Shown here piece by piece: positions 2,088 through 25,253 of a stretch of DNA of 64,000 nt. The number at the start of each line of letters is the position of its first letter. Position 1 is the first letter of the stretch. This stretch comes from an uncultured Gammaproteobacteria bacterium (GTDB taxonomy: Bacteria; Patescibacteriota; Microgenomatia; Levybacterales; UBA12049): positions 6,245 through 70,244 of the forward strand of contig CAZSWA010000003.1 of assembly GCA_964610465.1 (NCBI GenBank), given 5' to 3'. The notes below the pieces were generated by a model. It was not told the DNA's origin. It was given only the letters and a program-made list of their open reading frames with translations, and searched no databases. A program made the position numbers and the translations under genes.

Positions 2088-3779
2088 CTATTTTATTTTA
2101 CGGTTTAGAAAATAGGAATTAAGAAAGAAAAATACCATAAAGAAAAATGTAAAAAATGAAATATCCTCTGCCATAGTCCTCACAAGTGTGTTGGCAAATT
2201 TTACCTCAACTGTATGCTTTCCTTTTGGAATTTGTATTGTCATGGACCCATCTTTGGTTCGTTGGACTGCAGCTGGTATTTTATCAATTTTTGCAGACCA
2301 ACCAGGAAAATATGCTGTTTGTAATAAAACTTTCGCATCATTGGTAACTGAAACAGTAAATATATAATAAGTTGGTATAAATTGTACATCAGAAATTTGG
2401 GCTAGTCCTTTTATAATTTGGATTTTGGAGCTTTCTTTCTTCATAGGTACTGACTTTATCCAAATGGTATTAAATACATTCCCCGGGCTATTGGTTCCAT
2501 CAATAAAATTTGAGCGGGTCGTGTAATATGTATCTTGTCTATAGAGATAATGATCAGGTTTATTGTATCCAAGGCACAAAAAAATACATCCTATGACCAT
2601 AACAGCAATCAGGATTTTTGATTTTAGCGTGTATGCATTGCCTTTCCTTTGGCACAAGATATAGCAGACACTTGCTGCCAGAAAAGAGCAAATGAGTATC
2701 TCAAGACTTAAAAGTCTCCAGGGAAACTGAAAATAATGCATAAGAGGAACACTTTGCCAGATTGAATATGATGATGGCAGCATTAGAGAAAATACGACAA
2801 GAAATGCAATCAAAAAAAAGAAAGAGATTCTAAAAAGTATATTTTTTCTTCTGAAAAGGATAATCGTTGTAATAATACTTGCAAGAAATATCAAGAGATT
2901 GGCAACTCCTATTTGTACAGACATTTCGTCAGATAGAGTGATTCCAAAAATTCCAGAACCCCAGGATGGAAATAGCAGCTGATATAAATCAGGGAAATTA
3001 TTTCGTAAATCAAACACTTGTAATCCTTTCACATATCCTGTTTCCAAAAGCGCAGGCAGCCAAAAGATTGCAGACAAGGCAAGACCTAAAAGAATAACTA
3101 TCCCTGAAATTGCTAAACCTTTTATTATGTCTTTTGTCTGAAAAATTAAAAATATGATATAAAAAAGTGTGAAAATAAAAAAGACAAGACCCAAGATGTT
3201 GTGTGAAAAAATAATAAGTGCGAGAAGTCCAGCTGACGGAAAAAGATAGAGCTTATTTTTTTTAAAAAACAGTTTTGTAATGGTATATAAAAAGGCAGGA
3301 AATAATGCAAGCGCCCATACCTCGCCTACCGAACCTCTGATATATGTATCAACAAAAAAATAAGGTGAAAAGGTATAAAATACCGCGCCAACAAATCCAG
3401 CTGCATCGTCAAAAAATTCTCTTGTCCAAAAATAAAAACTTATTCCGGCTATAAAGAAAGCCACAAACATATTGAGTTTAAAAGCATCAATAAAACTTAC
3501 CCCAAACACATGAAGAAATGCTGCAAAATAATTTGGAAATGGATAAACATAATTAAAAAGCGGAATACCATATCCTGCATTAAAATCAGCTGCCCATCTA
3601 GGATACCAGTCACCAGCCGATAATGTTTTATAAAATTCATAAAACCTTAACACATGATACTCACCGTCATGTGTTGGCATCATACCAGCATGGAGTAAAG
3701 CAAAAGATGCAAAGAGAATAATTGGCAAAAGAAGCAGCAAATAGATATGCTTAAAAAGTAATTTGAATACGCTCATCAT
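2088..3779 (-). CDS. polytopic membrane protein, putative GT-C fold glycosyltransferase (PMT/ArnT-like)
   Basis: At least 10 predicted TM helices. The N-terminal loop 'HDGEYHVLRFYEF' resembles the DE-loop motif of GT39/GT83 enzymes. Transcribed divergently from the next large membrane protein. Confidence 0.45.
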   Translation of the reverse strand: MMSVFKLLFKHIYLLLLLPIILFASFALLHAGMMPTHDGEYHVLRFYEFYKTLSAGDWYPRWAADFNAGYGIPLFNYVYPFPNYFAAFLHVFGVSFIDAFKLNMFVAFFIAGISFYFWTREFFDDAAGFVGAVFYTFSPYFFVDTYIRGSVGEVWALALFPAFLYTITKLFFKKNKLYLFPSAGLLALIIFSHNILGLVFFIFTLFYIIFLIFQTKDIIKGLAISGIVILLGLALSAIFWLPALLETGYVKGLQVFDLRNNFPDLYQLLFPSWGSGIFGITLSDEMSVQIGVANLLIFLASIITTIILFRRKNILFRISFFFLIAFLVVFSLMLPSSYSIWQSVPLMHYFQFPWRLLSLEILICSFLAASVCYILCQRKGNAYTLKSKILIAVMVIGCIFLCLGYNKPDHYLYRQDTYYTTRSNFIDGTNSPGNVFNTIWIKSVPMKKESSKIQIIKGLAQISDVQFIPTYYIFTVSVTNDAKVLLQTAYFPGWSAKIDKIPAAVQRTKDGSMTIQIPKGKHTVEVKFANTLVRTMAEDISFFTFFFMVFFFLNSYFLNRKIK

Positions 3780-4011
3780 TTATGTTTATAGTAGCATATT
3801 TTGGGCAATTTTGGGGTGTAACAAAAATATATCTCATCCGTTATATAATATAGCTGTTTTTATCTATAACTTTACCTCCGCTTTTGTGGTAGAATTATAA
3901 ATTGTTTCTGAGGAATTTATCTTCGTAATTTTCCTTCTGTAATAATTTACTGTTTAGGAATAATTATTCATTCACGAATCTCGAATTTATCTTGCTATAT
4001 CATGAATTATA

Positions 4012-6030
4012 TTGTATATGCGAATAAGTAAATATACTTTTTTGTTTTGGGATTTTATAAACCTCTCTATTCTTCTACTCATTTCTCTTTTTCTCATTTC
4101 TTTCTATTTTAAAGCACATTATATACAAACAAATTATCCTGATTGGATAGTGCATGCTTTTAGAATAAAACTAATAAAAGAGTATGGATTAACTTCTTGG
4201 ACTCATATGTGGTCAAATGGTATTAGCATTTGGAGATCGTATCAATTTATCCCACATTATATTACAATTGGAATCTCTGATATTTTTCACGTAGATGTAT
4301 TACGTGGTATGGTGCTCACTACAATCACTTGCTTCATTTTGTTTCATATGGTTACGTACTGCATATTACGATTATTACAATTTTCTCAACTTGCATCCTT
4401 TATATGTGCCATATTAACATTTGATATTGCTCAGTATTGGGGAGGGTTAAGTGATTATTCTCTCCTGTTTGCATTTACTTTTTTTCCACTTTATTTATTT
4501 CTTTTTGTGAAATATTATCAGGGGAAAATCGGTTTATTATTTCCTTATATAATAGGACTTGGATTCTACATACATCCGCTTTTGGCAGTATACTCAACTG
4601 TACTTTGGATAACAGCGCTTGTTTTTTCTCGCAGGAAACTTCTTAGTATCACAACCTTTACTCAAATTATTGTTTTTCTTGCAGCTTCTACATTATTTTG
4701 GTTTCCATTAATTTTTAAAGGTTCTTATGCCTATTCTTCGAGTACATTTGCAACTGAAGACTTTCTGAAAATGGTGATTAACGGTTATAGTTATCTTGGA
4801 TTAAGTATATTTCTTTTTGTTGCTTTAGCTATCACTGCATTTAGAATGTTTGCTCCTTTACCCAAAAAATTTATCTGGGCGAAGACCTTATTTATTTATA
4901 TAACTACATTCTTAGTATTAATTATAATTGGAATAAATGCCTCTCTCCCAAAATTTATTGACCAGTTTCAATATACAAGAGGTGTTACTATGATCGGTAT
5001 AGCAATTATCTTTACGTTTGCGACCTTTCTTGATTCCTATATATATAAATCTATTTTATTAAAAACTCTTGCTATTTTTTTCTCATCACTTGTTTTAGTA
5101 GAAGGACTTTGGTTTACAAGTATTTATTCACCACAACCAGCAAAAGATAATCTTGAAAGTCCTATTCCACAATTTTTGAAAATAAGTAATGCAGTAAAGA
5201 ATAACAGTGGGCGTTTATGGGTACCAAATATTGATATTTCAAGCTTTATGGCATTAAAAAGTATGCAATTCCCCTATTCATATATGGAACATCTTGAATC
5301 AAACCAAATTCCACCTCGGATATATTCACTTATTCTTTACAGTCCTTTTCTTGATAATATTCCTTCTTCTAATATAAGTCGTATTGATGATTATTTTAAA
5401 ATTACGGGAACGAAGTATGCGATATTTGATGAATTATCACCATTTACTACTGCCTTTAAAGTATATGCAAATCCACAGTATATTGATTTAGGTAAAATAG
5501 AATTACCCCATCAAATCTATCATGTCTTTGAAGCGCCATGGGAATTGCGAAACGCAGTACTTATCAATTCTCAGTATCAAAAAGATATGATGCATTTCCC
5601 ATTCAATCTGGAATTAAGTGATGTGAATGATCAAATTGCACTTGATGATTATGTCAAAAATTTTGATAATGTACTTTACCAGAGCAATAATGTACCCCTT
5701 AGTATTAATTACCCGACTCAGGATTCTATTGAAGTCAAAATTCCAGACAAGAGAAAATCCAATATGGTGTATATAAATGAAAGTTATGATGCATCATGGA
5801 AAGCAATTTTTGATAATAAAGTCCAAAGTATAAAACCAGCAGGACCAAATTATATGCTGGTTACTCTTAACTCTCTCAATAATGGCGGTATTCTGATACT
5901 TAAGCATTACTGGCCGTTATCATTTTATGTCTCTATTTATTTTATTCTTCTTATCCCTATCCTTCTTGCTACAACAGCAATTATGAATAAAATATTGTAC
6001 TTTGCCAAAAAGGAGGAGGTCTATGCATAG
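4012..6030 (+). CDS. large polytopic membrane protein, putative GT-C type glycosyltransferase
   Basis: 672 aa with many TM helices in the N-terminal half and a soluble C-terminal domain. The stop overlaps the start region of the downstream GT2. Confidence 0.35.
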   Translation: MYMRISKYTFLFWDFINLSILLLISLFLISFYFKAHYIQTNYPDWIVHAFRIKLIKEYGLTSWTHMWSNGISIWRSYQFIPHYITIGISDIFHVDVLRGMVLTTITCFILFHMVTYCILRLLQFSQLASFICAILTFDIAQYWGGLSDYSLLFAFTFFPLYLFLFVKYYQGKIGLLFPYIIGLGFYIHPLLAVYSTVLWITALVFSRRKLLSITTFTQIIVFLAASTLFWFPLIFKGSYAYSSSTFATEDFLKMVINGYSYLGLSIFLFVALAITAFRMFAPLPKKFIWAKTLFIYITTFLVLIIIGINASLPKFIDQFQYTRGVTMIGIAIIFTFATFLDSYIYKSILLKTLAIFFSSLVLVEGLWFTSIYSPQPAKDNLESPIPQFLKISNAVKNNSGRLWVPNIDISSFMALKSMQFPYSYMEHLESNQIPPRIYSLILYSPFLDNIPSSNISRIDDYFKITGTKYAIFDELSPFTTAFKVYANPQYIDLGKIELPHQIYHVFEAPWELRNAVLINSQYQKDMMHFPFNLELSDVNDQIALDDYVKNFDNVLYQSNNVPLSINYPTQDSIEVKIPDKRKSNMVYINESYDASWKAIFDNKVQSIKPAGPNYMLVTLNSLNNGGILILKHYWPLSFYVSIYFILLIPILLATTAIMNKILYFAKKEEVYA

Positions 6031-7510
6031 GATAAAACCCAATCATATTCCAAATACTGCATTATTATTTATGCTTATTGCGCCGTTTACGATTCTTTTT
6101 TATGCGTCATATGTATTTAATCCTGAAAATGCGGGCAATATCTATCTGTACGCGGTCCAAATACTTGCAGACACTATCGCAATAATCACAATTGGCACAC
6201 TGTGGCTCACAATTCTTCTTGATATTATCCAACCCGAATATCATAAAAGAGATTTAAAGTATCACAAATCATGGCTTGAAGAAGAAAAACCAACAGTAGA
6301 TATCCTGATTCCAGTGGTCGATGAACCGATTGAAATTATCAAAAATACTCTTACCCATGCAACAAAAGTTGAGTATGCTCATAAAATATATATTCTTGAT
6401 GATGGCAATTCGCCAGAAGTCAGAAGACTTGCAGCCGCACTTCATGTAAAATATATTGCACGACCAGAACATAGAAAAAAACATGCCAAATCAGGAAATT
6501 TAAATTATGCACTCAAGGAGTGTACAGGAGAATTTTTTGCAGTATTTGACGCTGACCATGCTCCAAAAAAAGATTTTCTTATTGAAGTTTTGCCATTTTT
6601 TGAAAATGAAAAAGTAGCACTTGTCCAAACTCCGCAGTTTTATATTAACAAAGATAATTTTATCGCGGAAGGCACTTCTGAAGCACAAGAAATATTTTAT
6701 AAATACATTCAACCTGCAAAAAATAGTTATAATGCTACATTTTGTGTAGGTACCAATATGGTCTATAGACGTTCTGCAATTGATGAGATCGGGGGCATCC
6801 CGTTACTTAATCACTCAGAAGATATCTGGGCAACTATTCTTCTTCATGAAAAAAGATATGAATCAGTGTTTTATAATAAAATTTTAGCTGAAGGACGCGC
6901 ACCTGAATCAATTAGCTCTTTTTTCAGACAACAAAATAGATGGGCGCAGGGAGGATTTTCTATGTTTTTTATGCATAACCCGCTATTTATCCCTGATTTA
7001 ACGCTTGATCAAAAATTACAATATCTATTTTCCAATATCCATTATTTTAGCGGTTTTTCAATGCTTATCTACTTGCTTTTACCAATAGTGTATCTTTTAT
7101 TTGGAATTCATCCTATGGATGTGCTTCATAATAATAGCTGGTTAATCCATTACATTCCATACTTTATTACTGTATATTCACTGCCGCTTTTTCTACTCAA
7201 CAAATTTAAAATTTCAACTATTAGTGTGTCGCTTGCGAGTTTTGCTCCTTATCTAAAAGCTTTCATTTCAACAATTCTTAGAAATAATTATAAATGGATA
7301 GCAACAGAATCCAGGAAAAAACAATTTAGTGTTATAATGCTTCAGATATGGCCGCATGTGTTTATTATCACATTATCATTTTTGGGAATACTTGTCGGCT
7401 GGTACAATCCTGTTGATTTTACCACCACACTTGTGACAACATTTTGGGTTTTTATCAATGCGTACTTCTTGTTTATTTTTTTGAAAAATGGAATCCTGGC
7501 AAAAACTTAG
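6023..7510 (+). CDS. processive family-2 glycosyltransferase, cellulose/curdlan synthase-like (no PilZ domain)
   Basis: Motifs ILDDGNS (DDG), VFDADH (DxD), SEDIW (TED) and QQNRWAQG (QxxRW) are present. Multiple C-terminal TM helices. AGGAGGAGG SD at 6011-6019 lies upstream of the ATG at 6023, which is preferred over the ORF-track start at 6002. Confidence 0.85.
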   Translation: MHRIKPNHIPNTALLFMLIAPFTILFYASYVFNPENAGNIYLYAVQILADTIAIITIGTLWLTILLDIIQPEYHKRDLKYHKSWLEEEKPTVDILIPVVDEPIEIIKNTLTHATKVEYAHKIYILDDGNSPEVRRLAAALHVKYIARPEHRKKHAKSGNLNYALKECTGEFFAVFDADHAPKKDFLIEVLPFFENEKVALVQTPQFYINKDNFIAEGTSEAQEIFYKYIQPAKNSYNATFCVGTNMVYRRSAIDEIGGIPLLNHSEDIWATILLHEKRYESVFYNKILAEGRAPESISSFFRQQNRWAQGGFSMFFMHNPLFIPDLTLDQKLQYLFSNIHYFSGFSMLIYLLLPIVYLLFGIHPMDVLHNNSWLIHYIPYFITVYSLPLFLLNKFKISTISVSLASFAPYLKAFISTILRNNYKWIATESRKKQFSVIMLQIWPHVFIITLSFLGILVGWYNPVDFTTTLVTTFWVFINAYFLFIFLKNGILAKT

Positions 7511-7533
7511 TATAATGAATAAATAGTAATAGT

Positions 7534-8316
7534 ATGAAAAAATTTGCAAGTTTATTTTTAAATTTTATTTTCTTCAGTATTGTGATTCTTCTTGCATTTG
7601 TCATCGCAACAATTGCATTGACAAAAAAAGTCAATGAATATGCACACCGCTATAATCAAAGTATCAAAGGAACAGTAATCAAAGAAACTATTCCAGTCCT
7701 TTCATCAGGAAGCGGAATTGTGAAAAAGATCTATGTCCAAACAGGCCAAGTGGTCAAAAAAGATGACATGTTGATAGAACTTGATAATCAGGTTTTACAA
7801 AATAAAATTGATGTACTCAAACAATATACAGATAATGTCTCAGCCCAAACTGAAGCGCAAATTGCAGAGCAGGAATTGGGAAATCTTAAAATAACTGCAC
7901 CAACTGACGGGATGATAGGAGATATTACTGTTACTGAAGGAACACCTGTTGAAATAACCAATAAATTACTTACGCTTTATTCCAATAAAAATATACGCCT
8001 TTTGGCAGGGTTAACAGTAGATGAATATCAGGCAATTAAAAATATGCAGCAAATCCAAGCCTATGATGAAAGACTCAATCAAAGTTTTTATATTATTCCC
8101 GATATTCTCAATCCCAATGAAAATACTGCAACAGATGTGTCAACCAGTATAACAGAAAAGAAAATCGGATTATTTTTCAAATTTCAGGATCCAAATGATG
8201 CACTCAGTCTTTTAAACGATGAAGATCTAACTCTTGAATTAAACACACAAAATCAAAAAATAAACAAACCAATTGATTACTTTGTCAATTTCTGGAATCA
8301 GTTATTATCAAAGTAA
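7534..8316 (+). CDS. HlyD-like periplasmic adaptor / membrane-fusion protein (biotin-lipoyl-like fold)
   Basis: N-terminal TM helix; 'GSGIVKKIYVQTGQVVKKDDMLIELD' lipoyl-like hairpin; coiled-coil segment; 'ITAPTDGMIGDI' second half-barrel. Confidence 0.55.
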   Translation: MKKFASLFLNFIFFSIVILLAFVIATIALTKKVNEYAHRYNQSIKGTVIKETIPVLSSGSGIVKKIYVQTGQVVKKDDMLIELDNQVLQNKIDVLKQYTDNVSAQTEAQIAEQELGNLKITAPTDGMIGDITVTEGTPVEITNKLLTLYSNKNIRLLAGLTVDEYQAIKNMQQIQAYDERLNQSFYIIPDILNPNENTATDVSTSITEKKIGLFFKFQDPNDALSLLNDEDLTLELNTQNQKINKPIDYFVNFWNQLLSK

Positions 8317-8354
8317 TACAGCAAATAAAACATCGGTAATTAACTTAAAATAAT

Positions 8355-10358
8355 ATGAAAAAATATTTTTTACATATATTGATCTGTGACATCATTGCAG
8401 TAGTCTTTGGAGCTTTTTTCTTTACCCGATTTCTTCCCAATACAAATTCTGTACAAGTAGTCGATTTTAAGGATACTCTCCAGACCACACCAGTATTGTC
8501 ATCAAGCAGTGCAATTATCAATCATTCAATTACTCCTGTAGTATCAAACCAATGGTATAGTTCGATTTATAAAAAATTTCCAACCCAGCCAATTTTTGCC
8601 TTACCACTTGCATATATGCTTTCACCTAATGGAATTTCTTTTTCTTACCCTGATGTAACAGCATCTACCAATACTATCACTGCTCCCTTTAATGAAGACT
8701 TTACAGTAGGATTATCTGACCAGTTTGTAAAACCAAGTATTACCTCAATTGGTGATTGGAATATTGGTATCAGTCTTCTAACCCATACCAATAATTCACT
8801 CTCTTTTATACTCGCTCATGGAGTACCAAGCACTCTGCTTCACGTAAAAGCAAATTCTGTAGTGATTCATTTGCAGGACAATTCCAAAATATATAATCAA
8901 AATAAAACATTAGTTAACTCAAAAACATTCTCTACTGATTCTTTTCTTTTGCAGATACATAATCATAACTACATTCTTGTATTGAATAAAACAAATACTA
9001 TCGCAGTTGATAAAAATACTCTCACTATCGCAAATCCCACAACTCTTTATGTCGGTCTTCTTGATGACAGAAGTCATTATAATAACTTCCTGCAAACAGC
9101 AGATACTGAAATCCTCGGAACTTCGGCAATTCCGACTTTAAGTGACTCAGCACTCAGTGTAAAATATCAATTAGCTACCAACACCGGTAAACAACTTCTT
9201 ATTGCCCTCTATCCTCATCAATATGACACGCTTACTGAAAAAGTAAATGTACTTGGCAAATATGATACTATCCGGGGAAGTCTCAATCTTATAACTGCTG
9301 ATACATTTTCTACATCAATTGCGTTAGTTATGCCACCTGATTCATTTTCCAAATTATCAAGCGCTCATACAGATCTTGTGAATCAAGTAAAAACAGATAT
9401 AGCCGGAGTTTTAAGAAAACCAAAGCCAGATAGCACAGATTATTATCTGGGTACCTGGTTTGGAGAAATTGATAATCTTTTGCTTCTTGCAGATACTTTA
9501 GGATTAACTGAACAGAAAAATGCACTTTTGCAATTTGTAGAACCTATTTTTGTCAAAAGTCTCTCTAATTTCCATTATGATACCAAACAAAATAGTCTTA
9601 TTGCTGATTCTCCTGAATTTGGCAACGAAAAATTAAATGACCATCATTTCCATTATGGGTACTATATTCGTACAGCCTCAGTGCTTGCTAAATTTGACCC
9701 GGCAAGTCTTAGCAAAACCAAAACAATAATTACTAAAATGGTAAATGATATTGCAACTATAGATAGAAATTCAGAAAATTATCCCTATCTTCGCAATTTT
9801 GATGCCTACGAAAGCCACTCCTGGGCTGACGGGTATGCTGACTTTGCAGATGGCAATAATCAGGAGTCTTCATCTGAAGCAATCAACGCCTGGTATGGAA
9901 TGTATTTGTGGAGCAAAGTGACCAATTCCCCAAAACTTGAGCAATACGCTTTATATTTGTACAACTCTGAAATTCTCGGCGCAAAATATTATTGGTTTAA
10001 TAGTACTGGTATTTATGACAAGCCTTACTCACATGCAATTGCTTCTTTAGTTTGGGGAGGCAAAGTAGATTTTGCAACCTGGTTTAGCAATGATACCAAT
10101 ATGAAATATGGTATTCAACTTTTGCCTATTACACCAGCATCTACGTACTTGGGAAGTTTTCAGGATATTGGCAAATATGATAGTGACTATCATGTAAACG
10201 AAGGGGATGAAACAAAATCATGGGGTGATTTATTTACTATCTGGAGGTCATTTTATGATGATAGAAAAGCACTCTCTTTCAAAGATGCAGTAAAGAGTTT
10301 TGATGATAAGAATACGAAGTCAATGCTGCTTTATATACTCTATCTCAATAGTAAATAA
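8355..10358 (+). CDS. glycoside hydrolase family 81 endo-beta-1,3-glucanase, secreted/membrane-anchored
   Basis: 'NDHHFHYGYYIRTASVLAKFD' matches the GH81 signature. 'ESSSEA' places two Glu four residues apart, as in the GH81 catalytic pair. N-terminal hydrophobic anchor. Confidence 0.7.
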   Translation: MKKYFLHILICDIIAVVFGAFFFTRFLPNTNSVQVVDFKDTLQTTPVLSSSSAIINHSITPVVSNQWYSSIYKKFPTQPIFALPLAYMLSPNGISFSYPDVTASTNTITAPFNEDFTVGLSDQFVKPSITSIGDWNIGISLLTHTNNSLSFILAHGVPSTLLHVKANSVVIHLQDNSKIYNQNKTLVNSKTFSTDSFLLQIHNHNYILVLNKTNTIAVDKNTLTIANPTTLYVGLLDDRSHYNNFLQTADTEILGTSAIPTLSDSALSVKYQLATNTGKQLLIALYPHQYDTLTEKVNVLGKYDTIRGSLNLITADTFSTSIALVMPPDSFSKLSSAHTDLVNQVKTDIAGVLRKPKPDSTDYYLGTWFGEIDNLLLLADTLGLTEQKNALLQFVEPIFVKSLSNFHYDTKQNSLIADSPEFGNEKLNDHHFHYGYYIRTASVLAKFDPASLSKTKTIITKMVNDIATIDRNSENYPYLRNFDAYESHSWADGYADFADGNNQESSSEAINAWYGMYLWSKVTNSPKLEQYALYLYNSEILGAKYYWFNSTGIYDKPYSHAIASLVWGGKVDFATWFSNDTNMKYGIQLLPITPASTYLGSFQDIGKYDSDYHVNEGDETKSWGDLFTIWRSFYDDRKALSFKDAVKSFDDKNTKSMLLYILYLNSK

Positions 10359-10365
10359 ACTACTC

Positions 10366-10425
10366 GACAATATATTGTCATACAGAGGCTAAAAGCCGAA
10401 GGATCTCATCTGAAAAGATTCTTCG
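10366..10425. terminator. convergent terminator region: perfect 14-nt palindrome GACAATATATTGTC plus a 10-bp hairpin (CGAAGGATCT..AGATTCTTCG)
   Basis: Lies between the GH81 stop (10358) and the stop of the minus-strand gene at 10456. On the minus strand the hairpin is followed by CTTTT. Confidence 0.35.
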
Positions 10426-10455
10426 CTGTGCTCAGAATGACAAGCTATAATCCAG

Positions 10456-10740
10456 CTATTCTACTGGCTCATCGTACTCCGTATTTTGTAAATCCTCAGC
10501 TCCGGGAATATCTCCTTCAACTGCATTTTCAGGAACGTCTTCACTTTGTCGCATATTGGCTTTTATATAGTCAAACAACTCTTCATCAGTAAGCAATAAA
10601 TCTCCTTGTGTATGCCATTCTTTGTAATGATCTTTCACCAGATGAAACAGAATATTAAATGAATCATATGGTGCATCAGGCTCGTTGTTGTAAACTACAA
10701 TATCTTTTCCGCACTTTGGACAAGAAACACGATAATACAT
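10456..10740 (-). CDS. hypothetical protein with N-terminal CPKCG zinc-ribbon-like motif and acidic C-terminus
   Basis: ORF with native codon usage. Only a single CxxC pair is present. Confidence 0.4.
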   Translation of the reverse strand: MYYRVSCPKCGKDIVVYNNEPDAPYDSFNILFHLVKDHYKEWHTQGDLLLTDEELFDYIKANMRQSEDVPENAVEGDIPGAEDLQNTEYDEPVE

Positions 10741-10813
10741 ACTTTAGATTATTATACACCATGTCAAGTACCCCTTTTGTTATTACGCTAAAATCAGAAT
10801 ATATCCTATAGCT

Positions 10814-10867
10814 TTGACATGCGCTGTGTATTTTGCTATACTCGCCTCGTTTGCACATTGATATAAT
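10814..10867 (+). promoter_or_regulatory. tandem sigma70-like promoters: TTGACA-17-TATACT (10814-10842) and extended -10 TGATATAAT (10859-10867)
   Basis: Consensus -35 with 17-nt spacing to a near-consensus -10. The cassette ORF starts about 100 nt downstream behind an AGGAGG SD. Confidence 0.55.
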
Positions 10868-10967
10868 TTCCACAGGTGGATACGAGATTTAAGGTTTTAA
10901 TAAGTCTTAAGTCTTGTGTCCATCAAAGTGGTGGATACAGAATGGAACATCGCTCAGGAGGACAGCT

Positions 10968-11294
10968 ATGATTGACACAACGGTACTATTTGCAATGCTA
11001 CTAGCAGCGATAGGAATCATCATCCTTATCGCTCTACCGTACCTGATAATCCTAGTAAGAACGCCTGTTGTTACACCAGAAGAACTGGAACAGGCCTGTC
11101 GTAATATGAGAGCAAACGAAGAGAAAACGTTTCGTATAAGAAAACCATACTCTTATAACAATGTACAGTATGTAAACAATGTACCTATCCGGCTTGCAGC
11201 TCAAGGAGGTCATTTCGTCTTTCATTTCTCCAAACCCTGGGTAACAGTCTATTGCAGTCAACCCGTCCATACAAGAACGGATTCTCCTGCATAA
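10968..11294 (+). CDS. small single-pass membrane protein, atypical codon usage
   Basis: Start taken at 'MIDTT', which follows the AGGAGG SD. One N-terminal TM helix. Frequent CTA/ATC/ACG/CCG/CTG codons and higher GC than neighbours. Framed by the consensus promoter and a GC-rich terminator. Confidence 0.5.
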   Translation: MIDTTVLFAMLLAAIGIIILIALPYLIILVRTPVVTPEELEQACRNMRANEEKTFRIRKPYSYNNVQYVNNVPIRLAAQGGHFVFHFSKPWVTVYCSQPVHTRTDSPA

Positions 11295-15781: not shown

Positions 15782-16948
15782 GTGATGAGAACAAGAATGC
15801 TTGGCATTATTATAGTAATTAGTTTTTTCTTTCTCTTTTTACCCATTTCTCTATCATACGCGATTGTAAATCCCCTTAGTACCCCCAATAATAAAATTGG
15901 GATTCATATCCTTTTTGATACCGAACTTCTGGATGCAGCACGTCTTGTCAATGCCAATGGTGGCGATTGGGGATATATCACTATTCCTATTCAGGCAGGT
16001 GATAAAGATTTAGTAAAATGGCAAAACTTTATGGATATCGCACGAAAATATCATCTTATTCCTATTATTCGGCTCGCCACTGAAGGTGATTATTTCAATA
16101 CGAAAGTATGGCGTAAGCCAACACTTGCAGATGTAGTAGATTTTGCAAATTTCCTGAATTCTCTTCAGTGGCCAACTAAAAACAGATATGTCATTGTATT
16201 TAATGAAGTAAACCGTGCGGATGAATGGGGAGGAACTGTTAATCCTGCCGAATATGCTGATTTATTAAGCTATGCTGTCTCTGTTTTTAAATCTAAAAGC
16301 CCAAATTTTTTTATTATTAGTGCAGGACTTGATAATGCAGCACCAAATCAAGGTACTACTTTTATGGACCATTATGATTATATGACGCAAATGAATACAG
16401 CAATTCCTGGGATATTTAACCAGATTGATGGCTTAGCCAGCCATTCATATCCTAATCCTGCTTTCTCGCAACCTCCAGACATATCGAACCGGATGGGAAT
16501 AGGAAGTTTTGTTTATGAATATCAATTAGCAGATAGTCTTAGCAATAAAAAACTTCCTGTATTTATCACAGAAACCGGCTGGTCTTCTGATACTGTAACA
16601 GATGATACTATTTCGTCATATTATCAACAAACATTTGCAAATATTTGGTCTGACAGTAATATTGTAGCAATAACCCCGTTTCTACTTAAAGCAGGAGAAG
16701 GACCATTTAAACAATTTTCTTTTCTTAAGGAAGATGGAACTCCTTCAAAAATCTATTCTCTCTTCCAAAATATGCAAAAAATCAAAGGGCAACCAGTCCT
16801 TAGCCCTCAAGTACTTGTAGAAGGAATTGATACAAGCAAACAAAAAATACCAGTAAAAGACTTTACCAATAGTAATCTGAATAGACATCTCAAATTTAGC
16901 CCTTCTGAAATTTTAAAGTCAGTATTTGAATGGATATTAAAGATTTAA
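15782..16948 (+). CDS. secreted glycoside hydrolase, clan GH-A (TIM-barrel; acid/base in VFNEVN, nucleophile in ITETGW)
   Basis: Signal peptide/TM at the N-terminus. NE and TE(T)G motifs spaced as in GH5-like enzymes. Confidence 0.55.
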   Translation: MMRTRMLGIIIVISFFFLFLPISLSYAIVNPLSTPNNKIGIHILFDTELLDAARLVNANGGDWGYITIPIQAGDKDLVKWQNFMDIARKYHLIPIIRLATEGDYFNTKVWRKPTLADVVDFANFLNSLQWPTKNRYVIVFNEVNRADEWGGTVNPAEYADLLSYAVSVFKSKSPNFFIISAGLDNAAPNQGTTFMDHYDYMTQMNTAIPGIFNQIDGLASHSYPNPAFSQPPDISNRMGIGSFVYEYQLADSLSNKKLPVFITETGWSSDTVTDDTISSYYQQTFANIWSDSNIVAITPFLLKAGEGPFKQFSFLKEDGTPSKIYSLFQNMQKIKGQPVLSPQVLVEGIDTSKQKIPVKDFTNSNLNRHLKFSPSEILKSVFEWILKI

Positions 16949-16949
16949 T

Positions 16950-17330
16950 ATGGAATGGCATGAAGCATATGATGTAAAACAAGACATTGAACATATTCTC
17001 CAAGTACTCAATCTTACCTATATCGACCCTTCAAGAATCTTTTGTTATAGAACGCATGGTTCATCGGCAAGAGCATATGCTCGCACATGGGCTTTCCCCA
17101 AAATTTTTCAAAAAGCTCTCAATGTACGGCCTGCATATGTAATTGAAGTACTGGCAACTCATTATGACAAACAGTCAGATAATAAAAAAACGGAAATCCT
17201 GATTCACGAATTACTTCATATTCCCAAAAACTTTTCAGGAGTATTGCTTCCCCATCATACAAGAAGTAGAAATTTACATGCAGTAGCTAATAAATTATTT
17301 AAAGAATACCTAAAGGCAACCAAAAGATAA
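16950..17330 (+). CDS. HExxH-motif putative Zn metallohydrolase (SprT/YgjP-like)
   Basis: 'IHELLHIPKNFSGVLLPHH'. Translationally coupled to the upstream GH (2-nt gap). Confidence 0.4.
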   Translation: MEWHEAYDVKQDIEHILQVLNLTYIDPSRIFCYRTHGSSARAYARTWAFPKIFQKALNVRPAYVIEVLATHYDKQSDNKKTEILIHELLHIPKNFSGVLLPHHTRSRNLHAVANKLFKEYLKATKR

Positions 17331-18062: not shown

Positions 18063-19451
18063 ATGACAGACATAAATCCTAAGATATTTAAAGCCTATGA
18101 TATACGAGGCATCTATCCTCAAGACCTCAACGAAACAAATGTCAAAGAAATAACGAAAGCAATCTATGCTTTTTTTCTTAATAAATTAGGCACAAATAAT
18201 TTTACAGTTGTTTTAGCACGGGATATGCGTACTTCTTCTCCATCACTTCACAAAGAAGTTTTGGCTACCCTTATTGCGTGTGGAGCACATGTTGTAGATA
18301 TAGGAATAGTTTCAACTCCAACTTTTTATTTTGCGGTTTCTCATTATGGGTATGATACAGGTATTCAAATTACCGCATCACACAATCCTAAAGAATACAA
18401 TGGATTAAAATTTGTAGTCAAAGGGCCAACAGGTCTTATCAAAATTGGAAAGCCAACAGGTATGGAAGATGTGAAAACCCTGGCAGTAAAAGGTGTAACC
18501 ATTTCTTCTAAAAATCCGGGCAAAGTAACCAAAAAAGATACTCAAGCAATTCTTAAAGAAGAAGTCGATAACGCGCTTAAAATTGCAGGAAATCCAAAAA
18601 TCAGTAAATTCAAAATAGTCGCAGATCCTGCGAATGCAATGGGTAGTCAATATGTTGAAGCACTATTTCAAAAAGTTCCAACAGATTTAGTAAAAATGAA
18701 TTTTGAATTGGATGGAACTTTTCCAGCTCATCAGGCAGACCCACTACAAGCTGAAACGCTGGTAGATTTGCAAAAAAGAGTAGTAAAAGAACATGCTGAT
18801 TTAGGACTTGCTCCTGATGGTGATGGGGACAGGTTATTTTTTATTGACGAAAAAGGTCAAATAATTCCTCCTTCTATCATTACTGCATTAGTAGCACGTG
18901 AATTACTCAAGACACATCCTGGAGAACGAGTATTATTTGATATTCGTTATATTTTTACACCGCAAAAAATTGTTGAAGAAAATGGTGGAGCAACAGGTAT
19001 TACAAGAGTAGGTCATGCCTTCATCTCTGAAGAAATGAATAAAAATGGAGGAATCTTTGCAGGAGAATCTTCCTCTCATGCCTTTTTTAGAGAAACTGGG
19101 AATGCAGAATCTCAACTTCCAATGATTATCTTTGTACTTGCCGTTATGACACGGGAGAATAAAAAACTTTCAGAAATTGTTGAGGAATTAAGACGTTCTT
19201 ATGAATCAGGAGAAATTAATTTTAAAGTTACCAATGCACCGAATATCCTTGCAAAACTGAAAGAGAAATATAAAGACGGGAAGCTTAATGATATGGATGG
19301 AATCGCAATATCATATAAAACTTGGCGATTTAGTGTCCGTACATCAAATACTGAACCACTTTTGCGTCTCAATGTGGAAGCATATGACAAAGAAACTATG
19401 GAAAAGAAAAAAAATGAATTAGTGGCTTTCATCAATACTACAAAGAAATGA
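18063..19451 (+). CDS. phosphomannomutase/phosphoglucomutase (alpha-D-phosphohexomutase)
   Basis: Active-site 'TASHNPKEYNG', Mg-binding 'DGDGDR', sugar-binding 'GESSSH'. Confidence 0.85.
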   Translation: MTDINPKIFKAYDIRGIYPQDLNETNVKEITKAIYAFFLNKLGTNNFTVVLARDMRTSSPSLHKEVLATLIACGAHVVDIGIVSTPTFYFAVSHYGYDTGIQITASHNPKEYNGLKFVVKGPTGLIKIGKPTGMEDVKTLAVKGVTISSKNPGKVTKKDTQAILKEEVDNALKIAGNPKISKFKIVADPANAMGSQYVEALFQKVPTDLVKMNFELDGTFPAHQADPLQAETLVDLQKRVVKEHADLGLAPDGDGDRLFFIDEKGQIIPPSIITALVARELLKTHPGERVLFDIRYIFTPQKIVEENGGATGITRVGHAFISEEMNKNGGIFAGESSSHAFFRETGNAESQLPMIIFVLAVMTRENKKLSEIVEELRRSYESGEINFKVTNAPNILAKLKEKYKDGKLNDMDGIAISYKTWRFSVRTSNTEPLLRLNVEAYDKETMEKKKNELVAFINTTKK

Positions 19452-19903
19452 AAACTTTACCTAAATTTGATACATCAAAATTTACCATTACTCCTTATGT
19501 CAAACGGGTTGAAAAACCTTGGGGTTATGAGTTACATTGGGTACCGGAAGATGCTCCTTATATGGGTAAAGTCCTTCATATAAATGCAGGCAAAAGATTA
19601 TCTCTTCAAATTCATGACGCAAAATCTGAAAGCTGGTTTATGATGCATGGACGGGCAAAAGTATTGTGGGATAATGAGAAAGGAGAACTTATTGAAACAG
19701 AACTTCTCAACGGGCGAGGATATACAACACATGTAGGCCAACGTCATAGATTAATTGGAATTACAGATTGTGATATTCTTGAAGTATCAACTCCTGAAAA
19801 AGGCACCACATGGAGACTGGAAGATGACTATAAGAGACCTGATGAGACTGAGGAACTAAGAAAACAGCCCAATCGCGGTTGGGACAACGCTTCAAAAAAA
19901 TAA
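19448..19903 (+). CDS. cupin-type mannose-6-phosphate isomerase (type II PMI cupin domain)
   Basis: 'EKPWGYE', 'QIH', 'ESWFMMHG' cupin motifs. 4-nt overlap with the PMM gene. Confidence 0.6.
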   Translation: MKTLPKFDTSKFTITPYVKRVEKPWGYELHWVPEDAPYMGKVLHINAGKRLSLQIHDAKSESWFMMHGRAKVLWDNEKGELIETELLNGRGYTTHVGQRHRLIGITDCDILEVSTPEKGTTWRLEDDYKRPDETEELRKQPNRGWDNASKK

Positions 19904-19904
19904 C

Positions 19905-20957
19905 ATGTTAAATCTAAATGACATTGAACATCTGAATAAAATTGATCCCCAAAATACAAGAGCATCCAGTGATTTGATTGTCAAACAATGCAAAGCAGCA
20001 TGGGAACAAGTCAATAATCTTGAGATTAAAGAAGACAAGGAAAATATTACCAACATTGTTTTTTGTGGAATGGGGGCATCTATATATGGCGCACTTGTTC
20101 TTAAAGCTCTTATGGGACGCACGATGCCTTTACCTACTGAAATAGTAAGTGATTATTTTTTACCTGATTATGTAGATAACCACACATTGGTTGTCCTAAC
20201 AAGCTACTCAGGTACTACAGAAGAAGTACTTTCCTGTGCAAATGAAGCAAAAGAGAAAAATGCCAAGATGCTTGTTCTTACCAAAGGCGGACCGCTTGCA
20301 GAATTTGCAAAAACCAATAAAGTCCCAGCTTATATTTTTGACAAAAAACTCAATCCTGCTGGAGTACCACGATTGGGAAATGGATATACCATTTTGGGAC
20401 TTATTGGATTACTCAATAAAATAGGTATAATTGACTTGGAAGAGCATGAAATTACGAATGCGATTATTCGTCTTGAAGAAAAATTTGAAGAGATTAAAAA
20501 TCAAGCATTTAATGATTATACAATGTTTGAAAATAAAATCCCGATTGTCTTTACTGCTGAATATTTATCAGGCAACGGACAAATTCTAAGAAACCAGTTC
20601 AATGAAACAAGCAAAGCATTTTCTGCATATTATGTAATTCCTGATCTCAACCATCATTTAATGGAAGGACTCAAATTCCCAAAGAAATCCCCTCTTTATT
20701 TTCTTATCCTTAATTCTCCTAATTTTTCTCCAAAAATTAAGAAGAGAGTTGAGCTGACAATGGATGTAGTAAGACAAAATAAACACAAAATTTATGAATT
20801 TATGACTAGTGGACAAACCATATATGATGATTTTCTGGAAGCTCTTACCTATGGAAGCTTTCTTACCCTCTATCTTTCACTTTCCTACAACCAAAACCCT
20901 GCGATAAATCCTTGGGTAGATTATTTTAAAGAGAAATTAGCTCAAGGAGAGAAATAA
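19905..20957 (+). CDS. bifunctional phosphoglucose/phosphomannose isomerase (SIS domain, archaeal-type PGI/PMI)
   Basis: Two SIS-like halves ('FCGMGASIYGA', 'VLTSYSGTTEE'). Operon position immediately after PMM and cupin PMI. Confidence 0.6.
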   Translation: MLNLNDIEHLNKIDPQNTRASSDLIVKQCKAAWEQVNNLEIKEDKENITNIVFCGMGASIYGALVLKALMGRTMPLPTEIVSDYFLPDYVDNHTLVVLTSYSGTTEEVLSCANEAKEKNAKMLVLTKGGPLAEFAKTNKVPAYIFDKKLNPAGVPRLGNGYTILGLIGLLNKIGIIDLEEHEITNAIIRLEEKFEEIKNQAFNDYTMFENKIPIVFTAEYLSGNGQILRNQFNETSKAFSAYYVIPDLNHHLMEGLKFPKKSPLYFLILNSPNFSPKIKKRVELTMDVVRQNKHKIYEFMTSGQTIYDDFLEALTYGSFLTLYLSLSYNQNPAINPWVDYFKEKLAQGEK

Positions 20958-21371
20958 TTATTGTTTTGAAAGATATATTTTTATTTCCTTTATAAGGTCT
21001 GCTGGAGTTAATTGACTTTTGATAAGATATCCTGTTCCTAACGCAAGTGCTTCTTTTATTTCTACATCATCATTCAAATTAGTCAAAAACACTACGTTTT
21101 TATTTTTAATTGGCAGAAGTCCCTTATCGATGCTTTTTATCACATCGATACCGCTTAATTTTGGAAGTAAAATATCAAGAAGTATTAAATCCCAACCGCC
21201 TTGTTTGATTTTATCGAAGGCTTCTTCTCCATCAGTTGCACTATCTACATTATATCCTTCACCTTTGAGGGCCTCAAGATAAATATCACGCAGTAATTGA
21301 TCGTCTTCTACTACAAGTATTTTTGCTGAGTTCATTGATATAATCCTAGCATTATTATAATAAATAATCAA
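20958..21371 (-). CDS. stand-alone CheY-like response regulator receiver domain
   Basis: 'KILVVEDD', 'DLILLDILLP', conserved K. Probable true start at the internal 'MNSAKI'. Confidence 0.7.
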   Translation of the reverse strand: MIIYYNNARIISMNSAKILVVEDDQLLRDIYLEALKGEGYNVDSATDGEEAFDKIKQGGWDLILLDILLPKLSGIDVIKSIDKGLLPIKNKNVVFLTNLNDDVEIKEALALGTGYLIKSQLTPADLIKEIKIYLSKQ

Positions 21372-21415: not shown

Positions 21416-23446
21416 ATGGTGAATCAACTTCAAACTTATAAAAAAGTGTTTTATTCATGTATCCTTTTTCTGTTTTTCTCCTCTGTTTTTTTTCTTTATT
21501 TACATAATATTACACAAGATATATATAGTGGTGATATTGGAGATTTAGTAACTGCTTCCTATGTCTTTGGAGTACCTCATCCTCCTGGATATCCTCTCTT
21601 TACATTTTTGGGTTTTCTTTTTTCTCATATACCATTTTCTTTTCCTGTTGTATCACGCGTTGCTCTCATCTCATTCTTATCATCGTGGCTTGGTCTCATC
21701 GTTTTGTATAAATTTGCGAAGAAAGTAAGTAATGATATATTTATTTCTCTTCTTGCGACTTCCATTCTTGCATTTTCTTATCTCTATTGGCTACATGCTG
21801 AAGTACCAGAAGCATTTGGATTGAATAATTTTTTTGTAATAGCACTCTTCTATATATCTTATCTTTTTTATAAAGAAAAGAAAGTGTGGCAATTTTATCT
21901 CCTCTGTTTTTGTATGGGATTGTCTCTTACTCATCATCAAACTATTTTGTTTATTTTCCCGGGTTTGTTTTTGCTTCTTTTAAAAAACCTAAAATATGTT
22001 TTTAAGAAGAAAAAAAGGATATTGCTTGCTTTCCTTAGTTTTATTGTAGGATTTTTCCCTTATCTCTATGTTCTCATCGCTGCATCACATAATCCAATTA
22101 TTAACTGGGATAATGCTTATAATTTTCAAAATCTAATTCATTTAATATTAAGAAAAGATTATGGTTTTGCGCCAGCAATTGTAAATGAAGTGCCCTTTGC
22201 GGTCAAAATAATCCAGGTAAAAAGTTATTTTGAGTCGCTTATCATATTTTACTCATATCAAGTACTGTTCTTAGCACTACTTGGGGTTATCAAACTGATA
22301 AAAATTGATAGATTATTATTTGTCAGTCTTTTCATATCTTTCCTGTTTTCTGGACCTGCATATATATTTTATGGCGCAAATATTACTACAGAAGCTGCTG
22401 GTATGGGCATAATTGAACGGTTCTATCTAATATCAGCAATTATCCTCATGTTTTTCGTAATATACGGGCTTGTTTTTGTGAAAGAGTTGTTAAATCACAT
22501 ATTATCAAAAAAAATATATACTTTTATTTTATTATCTTATTTTCTTATTATTCCATTCTTTCTTGTAAAATATAATTTTGAAAAAACCAACCTTTCCCAA
22601 TCACATATTGGTAATAATTTAGCAATAGATATTTTGTCATCTCTCCCTAAAAATGCAGTTATATTCGTGTCAGGAGATACGACATCGTTTAATATTTGGT
22701 ATGTCCATTATGTATTAGGTTTCAGACCTGATGTAAATATTATTAACCCGCCAGGTGTTGGAGGAAATATTTATTTTGATAATCAAATTAACCGCTATCA
22801 CAAACTACATCCTTCAATAAAGCTTACAAACCTTGTTGCTCAAACACTTGAAGATATACGAAAAAGACATAGTGTGTATACTACATATGAAATCTCTTCT
22901 ATTCCCAAACATACAATTCTTCTTCCAAAAGGCTTAATATACGAAATGACATATGATAATGCTATGCCTACTAAACAAGAGTATATTAGAAGTGTTGAAC
23001 CTGTCCTTAATACAATACACCGAGTACGTAGTCAGACATTACTACCATATGATGATAACTTGATTGCTTCTGAAATACCTATGATTTATTCAAATGCATT
23101 AGTAAGAGTTGGAGATTTTTTATTTTCCTATTATCATGATTCAGCAACTCCTGAGCATTATTATAGAAGAGCATTATGGTTTGATGATAAAAATCCTGCT
23201 GCATACGCAGGACTTTCACTTAGCCAATATAAAGCCTACAATGATTGCCCAAACTCTATTGAGAACATGAATTCTGCAATCGATATTTATCCTATATGGA
23301 AAACGTACTATCTTCAACTTTATCTACTCTATAAGAGATGTAACACTTCTCAAAAGATCGTAAATAAGTATAAAGAAAGATACTATTCACTATTTAAAAT
23401 TTCTATAGATACTGACCTTACAAATAGTACAAAAAGAAAGATATAA
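21416..23446 (+). CDS. DUF2723 (TMEM260-like) GT-C membrane protein, putative protein O-mannosyltransferase, C-terminal TPR-like region
   Basis: 'SGDIGDLVTASYVFGVPHPPGYPLF' is the DUF2723 signature. About 11 TM helices. Confidence 0.6.
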   Translation: MVNQLQTYKKVFYSCILFLFFSSVFFLYLHNITQDIYSGDIGDLVTASYVFGVPHPPGYPLFTFLGFLFSHIPFSFPVVSRVALISFLSSWLGLIVLYKFAKKVSNDIFISLLATSILAFSYLYWLHAEVPEAFGLNNFFVIALFYISYLFYKEKKVWQFYLLCFCMGLSLTHHQTILFIFPGLFLLLLKNLKYVFKKKKRILLAFLSFIVGFFPYLYVLIAASHNPIINWDNAYNFQNLIHLILRKDYGFAPAIVNEVPFAVKIIQVKSYFESLIIFYSYQVLFLALLGVIKLIKIDRLLFVSLFISFLFSGPAYIFYGANITTEAAGMGIIERFYLISAIILMFFVIYGLVFVKELLNHILSKKIYTFILLSYFLIIPFFLVKYNFEKTNLSQSHIGNNLAIDILSSLPKNAVIFVSGDTTSFNIWYVHYVLGFRPDVNIINPPGVGGNIYFDNQINRYHKLHPSIKLTNLVAQTLEDIRKRHSVYTTYEISSIPKHTILLPKGLIYEMTYDNAMPTKQEYIRSVEPVLNTIHRVRSQTLLPYDDNLIASEIPMIYSNALVRVGDFLFSYYHDSATPEHYYRRALWFDDKNPAAYAGLSLSQYKAYNDCPNSIENMNSAIDIYPIWKTYYLQLYLLYKRCNTSQKIVNKYKERYYSLFKISIDTDLTNSTKRKI

Positions 23447-23454
23447 TTTTCTTC

Positions 23455-24600: not shown

Positions 24601-24602
24601 CT

Positions 24603-25244: not shown

Positions 25245-25253
25245 AACTACGAC

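Follow-up and report, generated by a model that had tools for sequence, protein, structure and literature searches.

The last gene of a four-gene cluster in a 64,000-nucleotide stretch of contig CAZSWA010000003.1 (hereafter the window, meaning the whole stretch analysed) encodes a homologue of the endo-beta-1,3-glucanases of glycoside hydrolase family 81 (GH81). Its companions specify a polytopic membrane protein, a BcsA-like family 2 glycosyltransferase (GT2), and a short HlyD-type adaptor. We consider it likely, with a probability of about 0.65, that the GH81 protein is the dedicated, tethered hydrolase of a synthase-dependent operon for a curdlan-like beta-1,3-glucan exopolysaccharide and not a stray fungal-type enzyme. 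Taken alone, the glucanase is an ordinary new member of a well-defined family; the interest lies in the conserved operon. The features that bear on this proposal are the following.

4018-6030, + strand: gene 1, a 670-residue polytopic membrane protein with a predicted GT-C fold (transmembrane prediction, AlphaFold2, Foldseek)
6023-7510, + strand: BcsA-like processive GT2 of 495 residues from the ATG at 6023, a predicted beta-glucan synthase (Pfam, BcsA alignment)
7534-8316, + strand: short HlyD-type membrane-fusion or adaptor protein of 260 residues (Pfam, TIGR01730, transmembrane helix 11-29)
8355-10358, + strand: GH81 endo-beta-1,3-glucanase homologue of 667 residues with an ATG start, the last gene of the presumed operon
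8367-8423, + strand: N-terminal hydrophobic helix of the GH81 protein, residues 5-23, FLHILICDIIAVVFGAFFF, following the MKK start (Kyte-Doolittle mean 2.47)
9639-9662, + strand: DHHFHYGY block of the GH81 protein, residues 429-436, containing the invariant D429-H430-H431
9864-9881, + strand: catalytic centre ESSSEA of the GH81 protein, residues 504-509, within NNQESSSEAINAW, with the E504/E508 pair

The GH81 protein and its catalytic centre

The preliminary description, drawn from the letters of the window, had proposed a GH81 glucanase in an AT-rich genome and had named a GH81 profile match as the check to make. Pfam PF17652, the catalytic C-terminal domain of GH81, matches residues 338-644 (E = 4.8e-51; 174.5 bits against a cut-off of 25.6), and the GC content of the window ranges from 0.29 to 0.43, mostly near 0.34. 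Eight distinct GH81 sequences in the PDB match the protein with E values from 4e-66 to 1.9e-21, the best being CtLam81A of Clostridium thermocellum (6FOP) over residues 62-641. More than 100 proteins of about the same length came up as homologues in a protein search, with identities of 40-53%, and an identical protein is already deposited at NCBI on a contig of 80,202 bp (P0001). On this comparative evidence, the open reading frame (ORF) is not a chance reading frame. No NCBIfam model matches the protein.

An AlphaFold2 model built on 19 homologues (mean predicted local distance difference test score, pLDDT, 86.4; predicted TM-score 0.85) comprises a helix at residues 2-25, a linker at 27-52, an all-beta region at about 80-323, and a helical barrel at about 339-666. 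When this model was compared with the PDB by Foldseek, the top 15 matches were all GH81 structures (E = 8e-39 to 2e-28), with query TM-scores (TMq) of 0.83 for CtLam81A, 0.82 for BhGH81, and 0.79 for RmLam81A. The next families all score below 0.27, which rules out that the region holding DHHFHYGY and ESSSEA derives from another (alpha/alpha)6 family, a possibility that the preliminary description had raised against itself. The overall layout is thus a membrane anchor, a low-confidence linker, a beta-sandwich domain, a small linking domain, and an (alpha/alpha)6 catalytic domain, with neither a carbohydrate-binding module (CBM) nor a C-terminal extension.

Hydropathy (residues 5-23) and the AlphaFold2 model (residues 2-25) agree on the N-terminal helix, and 15 of the 19 family members in the alignment have an equivalent segment. 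The sequence after the helix shows no obvious AxA cleavage site. We read the helix as a signal anchor, in keeping with the membrane anchor or signal peptide that had been suggested earlier. Residues 27-52 have pLDDT values below 50 and are probably a flexible tether.

The DHHFHYGY block is intact and aligns with NDHHFHYGY of CtLam81A and of BhGH81 (BH0236 of Bacillus halodurans, 5T49 series). In the alignments, E504 falls on the position that was mutated in 6FOP, an entry titled "Mutant E515A" (NNQASSSE against NNQESSSEA in the window protein), and on the mutated position of the BhGH81 series 5UPI/5UPM/5UPN/5UPO (NNQQSSSE); structural biologists had therefore already knocked out the equivalent of E504. 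In barley GBP1, the E500A substitution, at the first Glu of the equivalent block, abolishes laminarin hydrolysis (bioRxiv 10.1101/2023.04.12.536646). Across the 19 aligned sequences, D429-H430-H431, E504, S505, S507, and E508 do not vary, and none of the 84 GH81 loci examined has lost the E-x3-E pair. Because a literature search for the acid/base residues of RmLam81A (Glu553/Glu557) found nothing, the catalytic assignment rests on the PDB mutant sequences, the 6FOP entry title, and the barley GBP1 mutagenesis. The assignment of the ESSSEA glutamates as the GH81 catalytic pair, first made from motif position, is borne out by these alignments. By sequence, motifs, and predicted fold, the window protein is securely a full-length member of GH81, and its conserved residues indicate a catalytically competent, apparently active beta-1,3-glucanase.

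CtLam81A and BhGH81 are also its closest counterparts of known structure. They share the three-domain fold and the blocks NDHHFHYGY and NNQESSSEA, and the full-length match extends to BhGH81 with E = 3.8e-45; overall identity in the structural alignments is, however, only 23-26%. Both are secreted enzymes with extra modules: CtLam81A has a two-domain organisation, and BH0236 carries CBM6 and CBM56 (PMC9609564, PMC7915573). The window protein, by contrast, is predicted to be anchored, is encoded with a synthase, and belongs to another GH81 clade.

The presumed synthase operon and its spread among bacteria

The four genes lie on the same strand between 4018 and 10358, separated by an 8-nucleotide overlap and then by gaps of 23 and 38 nucleotides, and strand switches flank them at 3779/4018 and 10358/10456. 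From this arrangement we infer that the GT-C protein, the GT2, the HlyD-like protein, and GH81 form one operon. For the GT2, a start at TTG 6002 is an alternative to ATG 6023, at which the gene overlaps the gene 1 stop by 8 nucleotides; the latter start is supported since homologues measure 492-495 residues. The protein carries the motifs DDG (6398-6406), DAD (6548-6556), SED (6815-6823), and QQNRW (6929-6943), matches Pfam Glyco_trans_2_3, Glycos_transf_2, and Cellulose_synt, and is predicted to have 2 + 4 transmembrane helices. Residues 96-489 align with solved BcsA, membrane channel included (E = 3.5e-54). Scores against the cellulose synthase models are well below their cut-offs (TIGR03030 CelA: E = 4.3e-79, 266 bits against 699; NF008558: 217 against 992), Pfam finds no PilZ domain in the protein, and the operon contains no BcsB-like gene, the GT2 being neighboured by the GT-C protein and the HlyD-like protein. 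By these sequence measures, the system is not a canonical BcsA-BcsB cellulose synthase. Elsewhere in the window are a GGDEF diguanylate cyclase (62810-63664, +) and a stand-alone response-regulator receiver (20958-21371, -), though the GT2 has no recognisable domain for binding cyclic di-GMP (c-di-GMP).

The HlyD-like adaptor matches Biotin_lipoyl_2 (residues 58-84), HlyD_D23 and HlyD_3 (119-176), and TIGR01730 RND_mfp (E = 8e-15). Because only about 33 residues part the two halves of its lipoyl-like domain, it probably lacks the long coiled-coil hairpin that docks with TolC, which would suit a single-membrane envelope.

Gene 1 begins at ATG 4018 in the deposited protein (P0121) and at TTG 4012 in the mechanical ORF. 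It is predicted to comprise about 10 transmembrane helices, an extracytoplasmic beta-rich domain of about 280 residues, and a C-terminal transmembrane helix. It has no Pfam match even at E <= 10, and its homologues are all annotated as "hypothetical", none with a Pfam domain. The AlphaFold2 model (pLDDT 83.8) has AftD, DPY19, PglB, AftA, OST/STT3, and ArnT as its top Foldseek matches in the PDB (probability 1.0, with moderate TMq values of 0.40-0.49), and the predicted first loop contains the invariant D12 and Y40-P-D42-W43 (YPDW, nucleotides 4135-4146). This model places gene 1 in the GT-C glycosyltransferase superfamily by fold. Divergent from the operon lies another large membrane protein (2088-3779, -) with PTPS_related and YfhO Pfam matches, from another GT-C-like family; BLASTP between it and gene 1 is not significant (E = 0.23). 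Because Pfam and this neighbour comparison gave nothing, gene 1 is identified solely by fold comparison. It could act as a BcsB-like co-subunit or as an enzyme that branches or anchors the glucan.

In the scheme that we propose, we infer enzymatic activity, the beta-1,3 linkage, topology, the single-membrane envelope, and the physiological role. The GT2 would polymerise UDP-glucose into a beta-glucan with beta-1,3 runs and extrude it across the membrane by way of its own channel. The short HlyD-like protein, together with the GT-C protein in Patescibacteria, would form the extracytoplasmic part, an arrangement suited to a single-membrane envelope with no TolC-type partner. The anchor and flexible linker would hold GH81 on the outer face of the cytoplasmic membrane, where it could cut nascent or accumulated glucan beside the synthase, whether for release, control of chain length, clearing of stalled chains, or recovery of the polymer as carbon. 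GH81 would thereby serve its synthase as BcsZ (GH8), CcsZ (GH5), and the BcsZ homologue of cyanobacteria serve cellulose synthases.

A tblastn survey of 87 GH81 loci, with the flanks checked for cassette genes, found the cassette in every Patescibacteria-type locus for which the flank was available. The gene order is gene 1, GT2, HlyD, GH81 or, in some loci of Moraniibacteriota type, GH81, gene 1, GT2, HlyD. This permuted order, on one strand, occurs in L016, L024, L027, and L043, with the association kept. The four-gene set is in place ahead of GH81 in L001 (608 kb), L003 (421 kb), and L005 (1.0 Mb), where flanking genes differ and the GH81 proteins are 52%, 49%, and 40% identical to that of the window. 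In the loci surveyed, gene 1 is confined to the Patescibacteria versions. Next to the cassette in L001 (441-3419) and L005 (9951-14330) are genes for very large proteins with PA14, GSDH, and PKD domains that are predicted to lie at the surface, and in L005 a sortase gene is also close by (16504-17007); these neighbours hint at a cell-surface gene neighbourhood.

Beyond the Patescibacteria, a GT2 that is 32-37% identical lies about 1 kb upstream of GH81 in seven Actinomycetota loci (Nocardioidaceae, Galbitalea, Cellulomonas (L067), Lysinimonas, Marisediminicola, and two Microbacteriaceae), in one Ktedonobacteraceae locus, and in L007. The ORF between GT2 and GH81 in the loci from Actinomycetota and Chloroflexota and in L007 encodes 229-245 residues with an N-terminal transmembrane helix. 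A tblastn search with the window HlyD-like protein had missed the actinobacterial adaptors, which were found by extracting the intervening ORFs and scanning them with Pfam. All four ORFs so scanned (L060, L007, L067, and L044) match HlyD_3, HlyD_D23, Biotin_lipoyl, or Biotin_lipoyl_2, with best E values from 7e-14 to 1e-5. As far as these sequence matches indicate, the core of GT2, short HlyD-like protein, and GH81 spans Patescibacteria, Actinomycetota, and Chloroflexota, and the GT-C gene is a Patescibacteria addition. No synthase was found in the survey beside the GH81 loci of Verrucomicrobiota, Planctomycetota, or Paenibacillus.

The cassette of Patescibacteria type was also seen in L009, L011, L014, L015, L017, L018, L021-L023, L026, L041, and L043, with GH81 identities of 30-48%. 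The titles of these 12 records of metagenome-assembled genomes read "uncultured Gammaproteobacteria", "Bdellovibrionales", or "Pseudomonadales", and some GH81 homologues are named Methylomirabilota, Sulfotelmatobacter, or Chloroflexi. These taxonomic labels are probably wrong.

GH81 had been described at the outset as mostly eukaryotic, with only sporadic bacterial members, a statement that does not hold. A scan of bacteria and archaea with one genome per species gave at least 600 pattern matches, and at least 580 bacterial species representatives encode a GH81 relative. Among the matches listed, the named sources are Patescibacteria (Levyibacteriota, Gottesmanbacteria, Moraniibacteriota, and Woesebacteria), Verrucomicrobiota, Planctomycetota, Paenibacillus and Tumebacillus (Bacillota), Actinomycetota, and Ktedonobacteraceae (Chloroflexota), and the nearest named relatives of the window protein are from Levyibacteriota and Gottesmanbacteria. 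Few bacterial members have been characterised (TfLam81A, BH0236, CtLam81A, and PsLam81A), and all are secreted degradative enzymes (PMC9609564). We also considered a recent gain from a eukaryote and rejected it, because the closest relatives are bacterial, the base composition is local, and the bacterial operon is conserved across phyla.

In a neighbour-joining tree of 83 GH81 cores, the 46 stand-alone enzymes all fall in one clade and the synthase-linked enzymes all fall outside it. The "unlinked" entries within the linked clades are just two cases at contig edges, L011, which still shows the adaptor and the GT2 end, and L022, whose gene begins at base 56. The two groups also differ in what follows the GH81 domain. 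Stand-alone enzymes have C-terminal extensions of 56-114 residues in Verrucomicrobiota and Planctomycetota (2 residues in one case) and of 237-332 residues in Paenibacillus and Tumebacillus, the longer of which are big enough for carbohydrate-binding modules such as those described in PMC9609564; the synthase-linked enzymes mostly have 0-37 residues there (67-71 in three actinobacterial proteins). We take the stand-alone clade to be catabolic. At the N-terminus, the linked enzymes carry a strongly hydrophobic stretch. A lipobox-like motif (LAGC, LVGC, AAGC, or LAAC) is found in five of the seven Actinomycetota loci, with a looser GGGC in Cellulomonas and none in L044, and the pattern is also matched in five Patescibacteria-type loci. 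Because of these segments and motifs, membrane tethering looks like a common property of the linked GH81s.

The linked GT2s of the three phyla likewise cluster, with scores of 280-310 bits against the window GT2; a rhizobial BgsA-like synthase reaches 212 bits and an annotated BcsA 200. This clustering points to joint inheritance of the synthase and the glucanase. The GH81s of L007 and L008 (Ktedonobacteraceae) group with those of Microgenomatia-type Patescibacteria at 43-45% identity, and the GT2s of the same loci group beside those of Actinomycetota. The incongruent trees suggest gene exchange or recombination within the module.

A "biosynthetic" GH81 clade of this kind (tethered, synthase-linked, and without CBM-sized extensions), separated from a degradative clade that includes the Paenibacillus enzymes, would sharpen inferences of "glucan degradation" made from carbohydrate-active enzymes in metagenomes. 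It would also extend to a new hydrolase family and linkage type the rule that synthase-dependent exopolysaccharide operons encode their own hydrolase. For the genome-reduced Patescibacteria, the prediction is that four genes are spent on making and trimming beta-1,3-glucan, a polymer not usually tied to them and a candidate material for a surface layer, for attachment to hosts, or for storing carbon outside the cell.

Nature of the polymer and role of the hydrolase

Hydrolases inside synthase operons have precedent (PMC8892547), as do HlyD-like partners of GT2 synthases (PMC13438883). A bcs locus that was examined has the typical bcsQ-A-B-Z-C neighbourhood. BcsZ (GH8, bcsABZC) and CcsZ (GH5, clostridial ccs) resemble the window GH81 in being extracytoplasmic endoglucanases, encoded in operons with BcsA-type synthases, that act on the synthase product, and CcsZ is also membrane-tethered in a Gram-positive organism (PMC8892547). 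The window system differs from both in its hydrolase family and details of the fold, in its predicted substrate (beta-1,3- and not beta-1,4-glucan), and in having no BcsB, BcsC, or PilZ. The bgsBA genes of Sinorhizobium meliloti, which make a mixed-linkage beta-glucan, pair a BcsA-family GT2 with an HlyD-type membrane-fusion protein (MFP) in place of BcsB. A cyanobacterial cellulose system combines BcsA, an HlyD-like protein, TolC, and a BcsZ homologue, and so also has an endoglucanase according to the account of Maeda 2018 given in PMC8892547. Both of these, however, are diderm systems that require TolC, and in rhizobia tolC lies outside the bicistronic bgsBA operon (PMC13438883); no TolC-like gene was seen in the window operon or among the scanned ORFs of the window.

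The likeness to bgsBA has further limits. The Rhizobium GT2-MFP pair is comparable to that of the window, with weak similarity between the MFPs (E = 7e-5; 410 residues in L088 versus 260), but bgsBA has no hydrolase gene, and the BgsA-like synthase falls outside the group formed by the linked GT2s. BgsA carries a C-terminal domain that binds c-di-GMP (PMC13438883), whereas the window GT2 stops soon after its last transmembrane helix; at 495 residues against 664 for the rhizobial homologue, it has no room for an extra C-terminal domain. Agrobacterium crdASC is alike in its product, since the window operon is also predicted to make a linear beta-1,3-glucan with a BcsA-like GT2. To our knowledge, crdASC has not been described as containing a GH81 or HlyD-like gene. 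Fungal Eng1/Dse4, also of GH81, is by description a secreted eukaryotic wall enzyme with no operon and no coupling to a synthase.

Cellulomonas, which carries the GT2-HlyD-GH81 cassette in L067, lends independent support. The genus makes curdlan. Every species sequenced encodes two GH81s along with a pair of GT2s at 35-39% identity to the curdlan synthase of Agrobacterium, and the genome paper called it unclear how C. flavigena re-uses the polymer (PMC3544764). The Cellulomonas cassette is a candidate locus for both synthesis and turnover of this polymer.

The preliminary description had left two substrates open, a self-made glucan and the wall of a host or partner. We favour the first because GH81 is the last member of a conserved synthase operon; the second is disfavoured by the synthase linkage in free-living Actinomycetota. 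As a GH81 of this linked type is always encoded with the synthase and is predicted to be tethered beside it, the product of the synthase should contain beta-1,3 runs. Endo-beta-1,3-glucanase is the sole activity reported for GH81, and PsLam81A does not cleave barley mixed-linkage glucan, pustulan, or cellulose (PMC9609564).

Several points weigh against this proposal. Pfam PF03639, the N-terminal GH81 domain, gives no match to the window protein at E <= 0.01, so the assignment of that domain rests on the 6FOP alignment and the AlphaFold2 model, in which the all-beta domain superposes within the 647-column alignment at TMq 0.83; PF03639 is recorded for several close homologues. GH81 activity in the synthase-linked clade is itself a prediction. 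Operon status was drawn from gene spacing and synteny and not from transcripts, and scans of 3600-11000 for promoter-like sites (39 versus 39.3 expected) and terminator-like sites (2 versus 3.7 expected) were uninformative. The GH81 and GT2 trees are simple neighbour-joining trees without support values, and the identity of the window GT2 to BcsA, to the BgsA-like synthase, and to the actinobacterial GT2s is much the same (31-36%). The Cellulomonas supplement gives family counts and not locus tags, and the published CrdS-like GT2s are at most candidates for the GH81-linked ones. Finally, the sequence of a GT2 cannot tell the type of linkage that it makes.

Because of this last point, the most serious rival is one in which the operon logic holds but the polymer is a mixed-linkage beta-1,3/1,4-glucan (as for BgsA/RiGT2), cellulose, or a heteropolymer, and the specificity of GH81 has shifted. 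Bacterial GT2s with BcsA-like motifs can indeed make mixed-linkage glucan (PMC10374906), as does bgsBA, the closest characterised two-gene analogue with an HlyD partner (PMC13438883). Rhizobial pairs of an MFP and a CelA-like protein are among the best plasmid matches to the window GT2, and minor activity of some GH81s on barley glucan or carboxymethyl cellulose has been reported (PMC9609564). We nevertheless judge a non-curdlan polymer unlikely, given that reported GH81 activity is confined to beta-1,3 linkages, the inactivity of PsLam81A on barley glucan and cellulose, and a catalytic core close to those of CtLam81A and BhGH81 (181.9 and 138.7 bits over 200 residues). The grouping of the linked GT2s apart from both the BgsA-like synthase and BcsA, and the presence of the cassette in a curdlan-producing genus, point the same way.

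That GH81 instead degrades foreign beta-1,3-glucan, from fungal or algal walls, laminarin, or a host or partner, and so feeds or attaches an episymbiont beside an incidental synthase, strikes us as improbable. The organism is Patescibacteria-like, and Patescibacteria are widely thought to be host-dependent; the secreted, degradative nature of all four characterised bacterial GH81s (PMC9609564) would also fit such a role. However, GT2 and HlyD accompany GH81 at all Patescibacteria-type loci that could be tested, as well as in free-living Actinomycetota and Chloroflexota, and GT2 and GH81 appear to be co-inherited. The window enzyme also falls outside the clade taken as catabolic, is predicted to be tethered and not released, and lacks the CBM and C-terminal extension of the stand-alone enzymes (PMC9609564). 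A last alternative is that, within the secretion machine, GH81 does not hydrolyse glucan but binds it or acts as a scaffold, or that it is a transglycosylase. Hydrolases in synthase operons have been called enigmatic in function (PMC8892547), and plant GH81 proteins were first described as glucan-binding proteins, but these plant proteins are also active hydrolases, and retention of both catalytic glutamates and the DHH block in 84 of 84 loci is what an active enzyme would be expected to show. We regard this alternative as very improbable indeed.

The proposal of a self-made, self-trimmed glucan also has a bolder form, which we put forward tentatively and expect to be wrong somewhat oftener than right. 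It holds that the cassette is an undescribed beta-1,3-glucan machine specific to single-membrane bacteria and common to three phyla, that it is the missing genetic basis of curdlan production and re-use in Cellulomonas, and that in Patescibacteria it builds a surface layer that the GT-C protein modifies or anchors. If so, cells might attach to their hosts by way of this curdlan-like layer, or draw on it as an external carbon store. The literature search turned up no account of a synthase-linked GH81 or of a GT-C/GT2/HlyD/GH81 cassette, a weak negative since the search omits most subscription journals.

Other genes in the window

The window contains housekeeping genes for CysRS, GreA, UvrB, PyrG, pyruvate kinase, PPDK, enolase, and GatA, together with type IV pilus genes and MurT/GatD. 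Those relatives of UvrB at 75-79% identity that carry names are "Patescibacteria group bacterium" and "Candidatus Levybacteria". Together with the nearest named GH81 relatives, they place the organism in the Patescibacteria, probably in the Microgenomatia lineage. Contigs of related organisms measure 0.4-1.6 Mb (the longest of the named UvrB relatives about 1.0-1.6 Mb), as would fit a small genome. One further feature bears on the envelope.

55861-58492, + strand: MurT-like ligase and CobB/CobQ-type glutamine amidotransferase (GatD-like)

The MurT/GatD pair amidates peptidoglycan precursors in Gram-positive bacteria, and its presence is consistent with the single-membrane envelope that is assumed here for Patescibacteria.

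Downstream of the operon, at a distance of 8-10 kb, is a set of hexose-phosphate genes (18063-20957, +) with a bearing on sugar-nucleotide supply. They encode a phosphoglucomutase/phosphomannomutase, a PGI/SIS protein, and a small cupin that resembles mannose-6-phosphate isomerase; the window ORFs scanned included no GalU. A second glycan-related cluster at 21416-26990 encodes a TMEM260-like GT-C protein (21416-23446), a family 4 glycosyltransferase (23455-24600), two S-adenosylmethionine-dependent methyltransferases (24603-25961), and, on the opposite strand, a 334-residue GT2 (25986-26990). Three GT-C-type proteins are thus encoded within 25 kb of the window. A 126-residue ORF at 16950-17330 (+), lying among housekeeping genes, matches PF18894, "putative phage metallopeptidase" (E = 8.6e-19). 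Type IV pilus/type II secretion genes occupy 32910-35644 (-), including a T2SSE ATPase with an MshEN domain and a T2SSF platform protein.

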